Assembly (NCBI GenBank): GCA_037308085.1
Contig: CP147779.1
Span: forward strand, 864,001 to 928,000
Direction of reading: 5' to 3'
Length of the DNA: 64,000 bases
From: Promethearchaeati archaeon SRVP18_Atabeyarchaeia-1
Lineage (GTDB): Archaea; Asgardarchaeota; Atabeyarchaeia; Atabeyarchaeales; Atabeyarchaeaceae
Both the position numbers and the translations under genes were made by a program. Under the pieces are notes generated by a model. The model had not been told where the DNA came from and did no database searches. It saw only the letters and a program-made list of their open reading frames with translations. Position 1 is the stretch's first letter; every line of letters starts with the position of its first letter. This document shows, in pieces, positions 2,681 to 37,518 of the stretch.

Positions 2681-3595
2681 ATGAAGAATGGGTGTGACGG
2701 CAAATGTGATTCCTGCTCGAAGACTGAGGCATGCAACGATCCAAGAAGGCAGAGCTATGAAAGGGAACAGCGTCTCAAACTCAGAATGAGCAGGATTAGG
2801 CACAAGATTGCTGTAATAAGCGGCAAGGGAGGAGTCGGCAAAAGCACTGTCACTGTGAATCTCGCCGTGGCGTTCGCAATGCGTGGCCACGCCAACTCCG
2901 TGGGCATCCTTGACGCAGACATTCATGGTCCCTGTGTGCCTAATATGCTGGGTCTCAAAGGTCAGAGGCTCCTACCTGATCCTGAAGGAATGCTACCTGT
3001 GATAGGTCCTCTGGGGATCAAGGTCGTGTCCATGGCATTTCTGCTTCCAAATGATGAGGCGCCCGTGGTTTGGCGTGGTCCGCTAAAGATGGTAGCCATT
3101 GAACAGTTCCTTTCCGACACGGTGTGGGGAGAACTCGAGTTCCTATTCATAGATCTTCCGCCTGGAACTGGCGACGAACCCTTGAGCATAATGCAGTTAA
3201 TCCCAAGTATGGATGGCGTAGTAATAGTTACAATGCCTAACAAGGTTGCACAAGATGTGGTGAAGAAGGCTGTCACATTCGCCCAACATTTGGGCATTCC
3301 CATAATTGGCGTAATTGAGAATATGAGTGGCTTCGTCTGCCCGAAGTGCGGACATGAAATCGACACCTTCAAGACTGGCGGAGGGCAGAAAATGGCAAGA
3401 GACTTCTCGATTCCTTTCCTAGGGAGTATCCCAATCGACTCGGAGATTTGCCAGGACTCTGATAACGGAACTCCTTTCATAATCGAGCACGCAGACTCCG
3501 CTGCGACAGACGCGTTCAATGAAATCACTAGAGGGATTGAGCACTTCTTGGAGCACAGAAAGCGACTGGAAAGTGCACAAGCCAAGACATCCTAG
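2681..3595 (+). CDS. Mrp/NBP35 (ApbC) Fe-S cluster carrier ATPase
   Basis: N-terminal Cys cluster, SGKGGVGKS, DADIHGP, WRGP, DLPPGTGD, ENMSGFVCPKC. Confidence 0.93.
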   Translation: MKNGCDGKCDSCSKTEACNDPRRQSYEREQRLKLRMSRIRHKIAVISGKGGVGKSTVTVNLAVAFAMRGHANSVGILDADIHGPCVPNMLGLKGQRLLPDPEGMLPVIGPLGIKVVSMAFLLPNDEAPVVWRGPLKMVAIEQFLSDTVWGELEFLFIDLPPGTGDEPLSIMQLIPSMDGVVIVTMPNKVAQDVVKKAVTFAQHLGIPIIGVIENMSGFVCPKCGHEIDTFKTGGGQKMARDFSIPFLGSIPIDSEICQDSDNGTPFIIEHADSAATDAFNEITRGIEHFLEHRKRLESAQAKTS

Positions 3596-4819: not shown

Positions 4820-4975
4820 CTCTATCGATTCTCATGTGAGGTTCTGTCAAGTCTTCGGTTGAAGGCTTAACTGGCTTGCATCGACTTTCAGGATTGCCTC
4901 CTGCCGCTGTGAGGGTTCCTGCACCATCGCTTCACCTGCAAGTCCCGACGGGCCGAACCGCAGCCCTGCGCTAGC
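4820..4975 (-). ncRNA. Predicted orphan omegaRNA (reRNA) scaffold plus guide
   Basis: Nucleotide conservation with the tnpB 3' end at 35438-35566; TnpB omegaRNAs overlap the 3' end of tnpB and take their guide from the flank; boundaries inferred. Confidence 0.55.
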
Positions 4976-5096
4976 ATCCCGCTCTTATCTCCCCCCGCAT
5001 TCAGCTATGGAAAGCCACATGCCGCGAAAATGAGAGAATGCTTAGACGCCCAGAGTTCTTTCCACCATATAAATCAACCGCAGACTTGATAGAAGC
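4840..5096 (-). mobile_element. MITE-like internal-deletion derivative of a TnpB element that retains the tnpB 3' end / omegaRNA region
   Basis: 4840-~4970 aligns with 35438-~35566 and encodes a tnpB tail (AGLRFGPSGLAGEAMVQEP...DASQLSLQPKT*); 23-bp inverted repeats 4840-4862 and 5074-5096 (20/23 match); direct repeat TCATGTGA at 4832-4839 and 5097-5104. Confidence 0.85.
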
Positions 5097-5104
5097 TCAT
5101 GTGA

Positions 5105-5119
5105 CAAAGGTTTAAAATA
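5105..5119 (+). promoter_or_regulatory. Putative BRE/TATA promoter of cdhAB
   Basis: CAAAGG followed by TTTAAAATA upstream of cdhA. Confidence 0.55.
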
Positions 5120-5166
5120 AGGTAGGTTCAAGTGGTCTCTGACTAGAATATGGTTAATCGCTAATT

Positions 5167-35187: not shown

Positions 35188-35417
35188 AGAGACAAGAAGC
35201 CGGTCTCAGCATAATCGCCTATCGACGCCCAGGTTCGATCGGCCTTCTTTGTGAAGATAGTAAACGAACTTGGTATTTAATGCGTCCCGAACATATGATT
35301 ACTGATTGGCACTATAGGCAAGTCCGAAACAGAGAGAGTAGGATGTGCTCAAGGTCACCCCTTTCTTCGTCTAGTTCCCTTTTCCAGCACTCTTCGGTTC
35401 ACAATTCGCAGTCGATA

Positions 35418-35570
35418 TCGCACCGATTAAATGCTATGGTTCTGTTAACTCTTCGGGTGGTGAGTTAACTGGGTGGCATCTGCTCCGGGGATTACCTTTT
35501 CGCCTCCAGGGTTCCCCTTCACCACTTCACCTGCCACTCCCTTCAGGCTGAACCGCAGCCCTGCACCGAC
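35418..35570 (-). ncRNA. Predicted omegaRNA overlapping the tnpB 3' end; guide 5'-AUAGCAUUUAAUCGGUGCGA
   Basis: Segment conserved with the 4840-4970 copy; conservation stops at ...CAGAACC; boundaries inferred. Confidence 0.6.
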
Positions 35571-36695
35571 AATATTCAAAGCCGCGTTCACGTCCCTGTC
35601 TACGAGCTTCCTGCAGCGTGGACAGTAGACCTTCCTCCCCGCGCATTCGACTATCTTAGAGCCACATATCGCGCAGGTTGAGGAAGTCTTGCTTGGATTA
35701 ACGTAAAACACGTGGATTCCCTCCCAGTGTGCCTTGTAATCTATTTGCCGCTGCAGCTCGGCGTAGCTCCAGCTGTTCATCCTTGCCCTGTAGTCCTTGC
35801 CCTGCCAGTTTCCCCTCCTGTAGAGTTTACGGATGCCTCTAATGTCCTCCGTGACTATGCCGAACTGGTTTTCCTTCGCTTGCTTCACTATCCTTGCTGA
35901 AGTGTTGTGCAGGATCCAGTTTACCTTGTTCTTCTGGATTCTTCCATATTTGGAGTAGAGCTGTCTCTTGACGCGGCAGTCGTCTCGCTTGAAGCCGCGC
36001 TTTGCTTGCCTGCAGTTCTCCTTGACCACGGTCGCCCTCGACAAGTCATACCTCTTCACATCTCCAGCCGAGGACGCAGTGGTTACATTGTCGAGGTTGC
36101 GGTCTACCCCGACTAGCCCCACAGGCTCAACCTGAGCAACCTCTTTCGTGAAGGCTAGTGACACGGCGGAGGCGGTCAAGCAGGCCGAGCGCACAGCACA
36201 CCCCTCAATAGACTGTAATGTGTAGGAGTTCAGGGGGATGTAGATGTATTCTCTTACCCTTACGGGTAGTCTGAGCTCGCCGTTGGTTATCCTGAAGCCG
36301 TAGCAGTCGGTCAGCATGAGCCTTGCTGCATGGGGCTTCTTCATCCTCTGCTGCTTCCCCAGCGCGTGCCTGTGGTTCCGGAGGATGCCCGCGGCCTTGC
36401 TGATCGCCGTCAAGCGGTAGTAGGTTGGCACGTCGTATCCTGCGAGTTGATGGTAAGCCTTCTTTGAGAGCGCCTTCATCGACGTAACATTCTCAGCTAG
36501 GCCAATTCGTATGCAGTCATTCACCATCTCTCTAAACTCGTTCAGGAGGTCGAGTAACTGAGGAGATGGCGTGTAGCTCTGCTTGACCGCCTTGACCGCT
36601 TGCATACCCAAGAAAGAGACTATTTCGGCTAATAAAACCACCATATGACCAAGGGGCTAGCAGCGCCAACTATCACTCGAAGAGTTATCAGAGTG
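35438..36695 (-). mobile_element. TnpB-only element with terminal inverted repeats and an 8-bp target-site duplication
   Basis: Inverted repeats 35438-35459 and 36674-36695 (17/22 match); AATGCTAT at 35430-35437 and 36696-36703; contains tnpB only, no transposase. Confidence 0.8.
35445..36605 (-). CDS. tnpB: RNA-guided endonuclease TnpB (IS605 OrfB / Cas12f-like)
   Basis: RuvC triad intact (GVDRN, TEDI, DRDVNAALNI); Zn ribbon CAIC...CPRC; TTTTATTA at 36637-36630 favours a leaderless start at 36605 over 36644. Confidence 0.93.
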   Translation of the reverse strand: MQAVKAVKQSYTPSPQLLDLLNEFREMVNDCIRIGLAENVTSMKALSKKAYHQLAGYDVPTYYRLTAISKAAGILRNHRHALGKQQRMKKPHAARLMLTDCYGFRITNGELRLPVRVREYIYIPLNSYTLQSIEGCAVRSACLTASAVSLAFTKEVAQVEPVGLVGVDRNLDNVTTASSAGDVKRYDLSRATVVKENCRQAKRGFKRDDCRVKRQLYSKYGRIQKNKVNWILHNTSARIVKQAKENQFGIVTEDIRGIRKLYRRGNWQGKDYRARMNSWSYAELQRQIDYKAHWEGIHVFYVNPSKTSSTCAICGSKIVECAGRKVYCPRCRKLVDRDVNAALNIVGAGLRFSLKGVAGEVVKGNPGGEKVIPGADATQLTHHPKS

Positions 36696-36703
36696 AATGC
36701 TAT

Positions 36704-36716
36704 CAATCTTTATATA
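36704..36716 (+). promoter_or_regulatory. Putative BRE/TATA promoter of the metV-metF operon
   Basis: CAATC followed by TTTATATA upstream of the gene at 36826. Confidence 0.5.
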
Positions 36717-36825
36717 GAGATTTTTCTCTCTTTTCGCACAGATAAGATAATAAATTCGGCACACCGTTCATATTCGTTTAGACTATGATCTAATTCTGCC
36801 TGATGTTCAAGTCTGACCTATATCA

Positions 36826-37518
36826 ATGTATAAGCCCGGAGGTAGAATTCGAGCAATGATAATAACTGAGCAAAAGAAGTTTGAGGAAGTAGTAGAGAAA
36901 CTAGCACCCTTCAAGAAAGTCCTGGTGGTCGGGTGTGGACACTGTGCGACGGTCTGCCAGACTGGCGGGGAAGACCAAGCCAAGGCTATGGTGTCAAAGC
37001 TCAAGGAATCAAAAGGCCCAACAGGAATGATGGTGAACATGGCGGTCGTCGAAGAACCTTGTGACATAAGAATCCTGAAGCGGGACATGAAGAAGGCGAA
37101 GAAGGAATTCGACGAAGCAGATGCAATTTTGGCAATGGCATGTGGAGTTGGGAGCCAGACGCTCGCGACGGTAGTCAACAAGCCGGTTGTTCCAGCGCTA
37201 AACACTCTGTTCCTAGGGCAAGTTGAGAGAATTGGTAAGTTTGAGGAGATGTGCCGCGCTTGTGGGAATTGTATTCTCGCTGATACTGGCGGTGTCTGCC
37301 CTATTACTCGTTGCGCAAAGGGATTAATGAACGGTCCGTGTGGTGGCATGAGTAAGGGGAAATGCGAGGTAAACAACTACACCAAGGACTGTGGTTGGGT
37401 TCTGATCTACAATAGGCTGAAAGACCAAGGAAGGCTCGACCTATTCAGACAGTACAGGCCACCAAGAGACTACGCTCTATCAGGCTATCCAAGGAGCGTG
37501 GATACTCGAGCAACCTGA
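36826..37518 (+). CDS. MetV-like (MTHFR C-terminal domain) Fe-S protein
   Basis: GCGHCATVCQTGG, ACGVG, CRACGNC...GGVCPITRCAKGLMNGPCGG; probable start 36856. Confidence 0.9.
   Translation: MYKPGGRIRAMIITEQKKFEEVVEKLAPFKKVLVVGCGHCATVCQTGGEDQAKAMVSKLKESKGPTGMMVNMAVVEEPCDIRILKRDMKKAKKEFDEADAILAMACGVGSQTLATVVNKPVVPALNTLFLGQVERIGKFEEMCRACGNCILADTGGVCPITRCAKGLMNGPCGGMSKGKCEVNNYTKDCGWVLIYNRLKDQGRLDLFRQYRPPRDYALSGYPRSVDTRAT

Follow-up and report, generated by a model that had tools for sequence, protein, structure and literature searches.

The window analysed here is a stretch of 64,000 nucleotides from the genome of Promethearchaeati archaeon SRVP18_Atabeyarchaeia-1. At 35438-36695, on the minus strand, it holds a 1.26-kb element whose sole long open reading frame (ORF) is tnpB, with no transposase gene of its own. 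The element starts and finishes in terminal inverted repeats (35438-35459 against the reverse complement of 36674-36695, 17/22 identical) and is flanked by an exact 8-bp duplication, AATGCTAT on the plus strand, at 35430-35437 and 36696-36703. On the element strand the order is TTG-ATAGCATT-[element]-ATAGCATT-TAATCGG. The flanking duplication is the signature of a staggered-cut, DDE-type insertion. The original prediction, made from the letters of the window, had reported the 8-mer on both sides, the 17/22 ends and the lack of a transposase, and each was reproduced. It had also placed the host among the Asgard archaea, an attribution that holds given the identities of the two related genomes introduced below. 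As a structure, we regard the element with high confidence as a non-autonomous IS6-like element that carries TnpB and its omegaRNA and is mobilised in trans. Its features, and a miniature copy elsewhere in the window, are as follows.

36704-36706, minus strand: candidate target-adjacent motif (TAM), the triplet TTG (CAA on the plus strand) directly 5' of the left-end duplication; the position is conserved and the function predicted.
36696-36703, unstranded: target-site duplication, left-end copy, 8 bp (AATGCTAT on the plus strand).
36674-36695, minus strand: left-end terminal inverted repeat (CACTCTGATAACTCTTCGAGTG on the element strand), followed by a second, subterminal copy of the motif; it aligns with both ends of a 6.55-kb transposase-bearing element, subterminal repeat included.
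36631-36638, minus strand: TATA-like TTTTATTA, by its sequence a possible internal promoter, about 26-33 nt before the likely start at Met14.
35445-36605, minus strand: tnpB coding sequence, 386 aa from Met14, supported by domain matches, conserved residues and dN/dS (the ratio of nonsynonymous to synonymous substitution rates).
35438-35567, minus strand: omegaRNA-like scaffold of ~130 nt, recognised by conservation and covariation, overlapping the 3' end of tnpB and finishing in a hairpin and AGAACC at the element boundary.
35438-35459, minus strand: right-end terminal inverted repeat (GGTTCTGTTAACTCTTCGGGTG, reading inward on the plus strand), whose bases 7-12 form the final omegaRNA stem together with a GTTAAC lying upstream.
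35430-35437, unstranded: target-site duplication, right-end copy, which would be guide bases 1-8.
35418-35437, minus strand: predicted guide segment, made up of the duplication and a further 12 nt of flank, which read-through past the right end would yield under the canonical TnpB/omegaRNA layout.
4840-5096, minus strand: miniature copy of 257 bp with both ends and part of the omegaRNA, without tnpB; TCATGTGA stands at 4832-4839 and 5097-5104, and CAA (=TTG) at 5105-5107.

The nuclease gene, its RNA and the copies of the element

The longest tnpB ORF runs from 35445 to 36644 on the minus strand (399 aa), with homologues beginning at Met14 (36605), the likely start. The protein exceeds the curated cut-offs of two TnpB domain models (PF07282, 73.2 bits against 26.3; NF040570 guided_TnpB, 123.7 bits against 100), and its matches in the PDB are TnpB and Cas12f. 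D181, E266 and D351 (DRDVN) and the zinc-finger cysteines C324/C327/C341/C344 (CxxC...CxxC) are invariant in an alignment of 13 sequences, which bears out the intact D-E-D triad noted earlier. Every intact copy keeps a spacing of 7 nt between the stop codon and the end of the element. The copies compared have dN/dS of 0.14-0.31; tnpB is under purifying selection.

The last ~130 nt of the element (35438-35567) are conserved both in full copies and in miniature copies that have lost tnpB. RNAalifold folds this segment, over 17 copies, into 25 pairs, nine of them with compensatory changes. The cells of the fold are paired in 97% of cases, against 26-45% when the partners are slid as controls; double-change cells number 44, where shuffling gives 13 (0/500). 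No Rfam family matched within 35300-36850. The conservation and covariation suggest that the segment is an omegaRNA scaffold. Its last stem joins part of the right inverted repeat to the upstream GTTAAC, covarying as GTTAAC/GTTACC/GTCGAG between subfamilies, and only the six bases AGAACC stand between this stem and the flank. This arrangement suggests that a transposase-binding end has been built into an omegaRNA, or the reverse.

A BLASTN search of the whole 2.81-Mb source genome (G000) with the element as query found three full copies including that in the window, the other two being 85-87% identical to it, two truncated copies, and seven miniatures of ~260 bp that retain both ends and the last ~130 nt. 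The genome also carries a second tnpB family, eleven 1.29-kb elements with about 40% protein identity to the first and ends of the form GGTTCTGTTACC. Every copy stops sharply at ...ACAGAACC. Chance does not explain the pattern of ends and 8-mers, since these abrupt ends are found at >20 positions in the genome, accompanied by different 8-mers. The flanking 8-mers match at 7-8 of 8 positions in at least 16/24 tabulated source-genome elements, with a different sequence each time. In the two related genomes, a Promethearchaeati metagenome-assembled genome (MAG; G001) and the sister genome Candidatus Atabeyarchaeum deiterrae (G002), both ends could be resolved for four copies, and each of these likewise has a 7-8/8 duplication. 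The prediction that other copies would share inverted ends and have variable duplications was thus upheld in most of those tabulated. When we looked in the source genome for further tnpB-less elements with these ends, the only candidate was one of 201 bp without a clear duplication, and scanning genome contigs with the single TnpB protein returned only one locus, from a MAG of the same genus. One copy in the Promethearchaeati MAG (G001:C62) is odd in that its left end (L017:1385-1430) repeats, in inverted orientation, the final ~45 nt of its right end, terminal omegaRNA hairpin included, giving it unusually long inverted repeats.

The diverged copy that the prediction had placed at 4832-5107, with the same layout and another 8-mer, proved to be the 257-bp miniature with TCATGTGA on both sides. 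Its unfilled site is preserved in the sister genome at about 835894-835902, reading ...GATTC TCATGTGA CAAAAG..., with the 8-mer single; the duplication is therefore real. For the 35438-36695 copy, the orthologous intergenic region is colinear and uninterrupted in both related genomes. Among the contigs of four DNA runs none spanned an empty allele of the element, but rare variants are lost from contigs, and the result is therefore silent on whether empty alleles are absent. Both filled junctions are crossed without difference by contigs of a second study, and the stretch is present in wetland and freshwater-sediment metagenomes of two studies; no RNA dataset is among the public runs listed for it. 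Beside the element, the flank at 36704-36760 (CAATCTTTATATAGAGATTTTTCTCTC...CGCACAGATAA) is conserved in both related genomes, unlike the surrounding intergenic DNA; it may be a promoter or leader, or a small RNA.

A probable IS6-like partner transposase

The source genome holds two genes with the IS6/IS240 DDE domain PF13610. The intact one (G000:549896-551047) encodes a 383-aa transposase with N-terminal SWIM and zinc-ribbon motifs (PF13610 65.4 bits, cut-off 27) and is housed in a 6,554-bp element (G000:549276-555829) with a perfect duplication, TGGAGAAC. The ends of that element, GGTTCTGTTAACTTGTTGGGTGA and GGTTCTGTTAAGTCTTCGGGTGA, are of the type GGTTCTGTTAAC... and are near-identical to, and aligned with, both ends of the tnpB element, including the second, subterminal copy of the motif. 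The other transposase element, of 4.4 kb (L003:250-4668; G000:614149-618567), is bounded by GTTACC-type inverted ends of 65 bp, and its transposase is split. Homologous transposases occur in both related genomes and in G011. That of the sister genome lies inside an element of 6,159 bp whose TGGATTTC duplication is perfect, and the Promethearchaeati MAG also has a transposase-bearing element.

The ends of the tnpB element begin GGTTCTGTT and are short inverted ends of the IS6 type. The end of IS257, an IS6 family member, is GGTTCTGTTGCAAAGTT (PMC4856351), and its first nine bases are thus common to the two. A further Asgard genome contains an ordinary IS6-like insertion sequence of 1.2 kb that is bounded by GGTTCTGGT ends and has duplicated 8 bp of its target. 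From these matches, the 383-aa IS6-like transposase of the 6.55-kb transposon is the most likely candidate for moving the tnpB element in trans. The prediction had proposed a DDE enzyme acting in trans, which now looks likely. It had also called for an autonomous copy: a transposase-bearing element with matching ends was found, but in the three genomes none that also carries tnpB.

One contig of the Promethearchaeati MAG (G001:C238; L063, 4077 bp) has tnpB and transposase sequences side by side, because a transposase-bearing element, ending at 3463 and abutting an internal fragment of a tnpB copy, has inserted into that copy. Here the presumed mobiliser is nested within one of its own passengers.

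Both transposase elements carry cargo. The 6.55-kb transposon (L005:77-6630) includes a 995-aa ORF resembling the type IIG methylase-endonucleases Eco57I/MmeI, and ORFs of 219, 156 and 83 aa with no Pfam match. The 4.4-kb element, with a TGAAAAA[A/C] duplication, encodes a 251-aa DDE fragment from which the N-terminus has apparently been split off, an HxlR-like regulator, a DUF5678 protein and an aspartyl-protease-like ORF.

The likeness to the IS6 family (IS26, IS257/IS431, ISS1) and its miniature derivatives extends to the GGTTCTGTT ends, the 8-bp duplication, the PF13610 partner transposase and the frequency of copies without a duplication. Classical IS6 elements, however, are ~0.8 kb, encode a transposase only and have no reported target motif. 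The partner here is a 6-kb cargo transposon whose transposase has an N-terminal zinc-finger/SWIM extension, and the non-autonomous derivatives, unlike those of classical IS6, carry tnpB and/or the omegaRNA.

Relatives at 50-73% identity share the GGTTCTGTTAAC ends in records labelled Bathyarchaeota, Thaumarchaeota and Njordarchaeota, the first two being MAG labels checked by context and the third coming from protein names only. In more distant Asgard tnpB genes (24-37% identity) GGTTCTG ends were not found.

The motif outside the duplication

We then considered the three element-strand bases directly 5' of the left-end duplication, counting elements of the source genome and the two related genomes. 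In elements with the window type of TnpB the triplet is TTG in 9/15 by a strict count and 12/15 after allowing for 1-nt boundary ambiguities, on a background of 1.9% (P=1.6e-12 for the strict count). With the second TnpB type it is TTA in 7/12, on a background of 0.9% (P=3.5e-12). A pyrimidine, C or T, usually precedes the triplet, giving YTTG or YTTA. The third base is G in 13/15 elements of the window type and 0/12 of the second (P=6e-6). The motif is also one-sided: TTR stands at the left end in 20/27, while the mirror YAA lies past the right-end duplication in 2/27 (P=8e-7). The TTG that the prediction expected directly outside the left-end duplication was therefore recovered in most copies of the window TnpB type. 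When the comparison is held to GTTACC-type ends, the window type has xTG in 4/4 (G001 and L086) and the second type has G in 0/12. By these counts the motif follows the type of nuclease.

A TAM would have to occupy precisely this position for a target that starts with the duplication, and with TTG directly outside the left-end copy the duplication would be guide positions 1-8. In the empty site of the sister genome, TTG+TCACATGAGAATCGAC matches the right flank of the miniature copy over 15 bases. The one-sided enrichment of YTTG/YTTA fits a TAM with the duplication as the first eight guide bases, and on balance we favour this identification and the homing logic that comes with it, by a modest degree.

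The best explanation of the whole, and one we think probable, is that tnpB and its omegaRNA lie between the inverted repeats of an IS6-like DDE element and are mobilised in trans. Insertion would proceed through a staggered 8-bp cut, hence the 8-mer duplicated on both sides. Transcription reading through the right boundary would supply the guide, and because the scaffold ends 6 nt from that boundary, the guide would start with the duplication and continue into the right flank. The unfilled allele would be [YTTG][8-mer][right flank], a full target beside the candidate TAM. The filled allele would offer on its left only eight matching bases after YTTG, and on its right AACC in place of the TAM, so that TnpB would cut empty alleles only. 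Repair from a filled chromosome copy would then spread or retain the insertion. The motif may have arisen by target choice or by the survival of insertions that landed beside a TAM.

Several observations weigh against this picture. The copies in the genome are 72-87% identical to the window element by BLASTN and so show no sign of recent movement. The best NCBIfam match of the 383-aa transposase, to the IS6 family model NF033587, scores 120.7 bits, just under the cut-off of 125, and the three genomes contain no autonomous element with tnpB and transposase inside one pair of ends. In distant metagenomic relatives with clean ends about half have no duplication, the others having a perfect 8 bp, and the triplet varies more, being mostly TTG, ATG or TTA and sometimes ACG, AGG or TTT. 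Elements of the IS6 family are thought to move replicatively and would therefore have no need of 'restorative' homing. Finally, three transposase-bearing relatives without tnpB have, on one side, an AT-rich, TATA-like run and then TAG, TTA or TTG, and the bias in sites may thus belong partly to the transposase or to the sites that are tolerated. A preference for promoter-proximal or AT-rich sites may be independent of TnpB.

The missing duplications could result from IS26-like intramolecular events or from recombination between copies. They may also hint at replicative, cointegrate-forming transposition. The metagenome contigs L094, L100, L102, L115 and L122-L124 have inverted ends matching at 20-22 of 22 positions and no flanking duplication.

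Most left-end flanks have a TATA-box-like AT-rich run (TTTAAA, TATAAA) 2-6 nt beyond the triplet, on the left-end side only, as at 36707-36720 and 5108-5120 in the window, and the elements seem to land just beside promoters in a single orientation. These flanks bear on the strongest alternative, in which the carrier is the same, YTTR is not a TAM and TnpB is cargo unrelated to the site. The motif would then reflect a preference of the IS6-like transposase or the tolerance of promoter-adjacent sites, with unequal ends setting the orientation. The three tnpB-less transposase elements, whose duplication is immediately preceded on one side by TAATAAATCTAG, ATTTAAGGATTA or ATTTTAAACTTG, agree with this account, as does the match between end type and third base (GTTACC with TTA, GTCAAG with TTG). 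However, the side of those three was picked post hoc, with two chances each and n=3, and at constant end type the third base still tracks the nuclease. The account also has to accommodate a motif that abuts the duplication exactly at the position required of a TAM, an omegaRNA retained even in miniatures, and the purifying selection on tnpB. We consider it unlikely, and the weightiest of the rivals.

A more radical proposal is that TnpB steers insertion: bound to the right end or its RNA, it would dock on the TAM and deliver the DDE transpososome, as a TAM-directed precursor resembling a CRISPR-associated transposon. The enrichment, at about 74% against a background of about 3%, one-sided and at a fixed distance, is stronger than neutral drift plus drive easily gives. 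It is incomplete, though (CTA, ATG, TAC, ACG and AGG also occur), tnpB-less transposase elements sit at similar sites, and nothing points to contact between TnpB and a transposase that is encoded on a different element. We judge this improbable.

A broader claim is put forward only tentatively. In it, the variable 8-bp cut site of the transposase would be separate from the motif that the nuclease recognises, YTTG/YTTA outside the duplication, and the motif would read out the action of TnpB, either by homing-driven survival of random IS6-like insertions in these archaea or by TAM-binding steering of the DDE transpososome.

Relation to known TnpB carriers

A more conventional origin can be put aside as very improbable. 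In this view the element would be an ordinary tnpB-only one of IS200/IS605 (IS1341) type that depends on a Y1 TnpA, or one of IS607 type that a serine recombinase mobilises, and the 8-mer would be coincidental or belong to the element. The genome does hold three Y1 transposases and three serine recombinases, some adjoining other tnpB genes, but their chemistry does not yield such a duplication signature, the inverted-repeat ends are common to a DDE-bearing element, the 8-mer is single in the empty site, and neither family has inverted ends or target duplications (PMC13565253), as the prediction had maintained. Nor can the 8-mer be read as a target of IS605 type or as a sequence of the right end, because it differs at every copy.

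The genome has about 46 TnpB-domain matches in 2.8 Mb, among them classical pairs in which tnpB lies beside a Y1 gene (1573364, 1955413) or a serine-recombinase gene (1500766, 1969633). Adding the IS6-like association, three types of TnpB carrier coexist in it.

Like the IS1341 group and ISDra2, the window element has a D-E-D RuvC domain with DRDxN, a zinc finger, an omegaRNA over the 3' end of the gene and a predicted guide from the right flank, and like ISDra2 (TTGAT) it has a T-rich motif 5' of the target. IS1341-group elements have subterminal hairpins, and Y1 HUH insertion places them on the 3' side of a fixed site of 4-5 nt which doubles as their TAM; the window element, in contrast, has IS6-like ends and a variable 8-mer beside the motif.

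The prediction took carriers with inverted ends and target duplications to be known only for eukaryotic Fanzors, which was overstated. The main text of Altae-Tran et al. (2023, PMC10691335) describes six DDE-associated branches of prokaryotic TnpB with inverted terminal repeats, DDE-1 to DDE-6, together with solo TnpBs whose ends are shared with DDE-bearing elements, so that the general kind is, on that account, already published. The window element, a solo TnpB sharing its inverted ends with a DDE-bearing element, resembles these branches in this and in the closeness of the tnpB 3' end to the transposon end. It differs in its IS6-like partner, in a variable 8-bp duplication as the start of the guide and in the motif outside it, none of which the main text describes, and in a transposase that was not found in one unit with tnpB. 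The only DDE carrier named in that main text is IS630, while a 2026 review lists ISL2, IS630 and IS1031 (PMC13565253); in the accounts of DDE-associated TnpB given in these two texts, IS6, IS26 and IS240 go unmentioned.

Fanzor1 in eukaryotic transposons with inverted ends and duplications (Mariner, hAT and others) is likewise a TnpB-family nuclease on duplication-making DDE elements. Fanzors, however, have a short fixed duplication (TA, TTAA) that is part of the TAM, and a catalytic E ~6 residues before the zinc finger (PMC13565253). The window element is in an archaeal host, has a variable 8-bp duplication that would lie in the guide with the motif outside it, and has E266 58 residues N-terminal of C324, as in canonical TnpB.

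Our literature search found no work that ties TnpB to the IS6 family by mechanism, that names a carrier of IS6-like kind or that places a TAM outside the duplication, and nothing relevant on TnpB in Atabeyarchaeia. The IS6-like carrier, the duplication inside the guide and the type-specific motif outside the duplication look undescribed, as do miniature copies that carry only the omegaRNA.

In IS605 and IS607 elements the transposase itself inserts beside the TAM, and any role of TnpB in the choice or retention of sites is therefore inseparable from the specificity of the transposase. A DDE enzyme that makes a variable 8-bp duplication, with the candidate TAM outside it, would allow a direct test of what TnpB homing and the transposase each contribute to persistence, particularly as the same transposase would also move elements without tnpB. 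The right end illustrates a way for a guide RNA to be incorporated into an end that the transposase binds. The wide spread of the family among archaea, with records labelled Asgard, Bathyarchaeota and Thaumarchaeota, means that it contributes further compact TnpB/omegaRNA pairs whose predicted TAMs are short. If TnpB did prove to steer insertion, such elements would be a nuclease-active forerunner of RNA-guided transposition.

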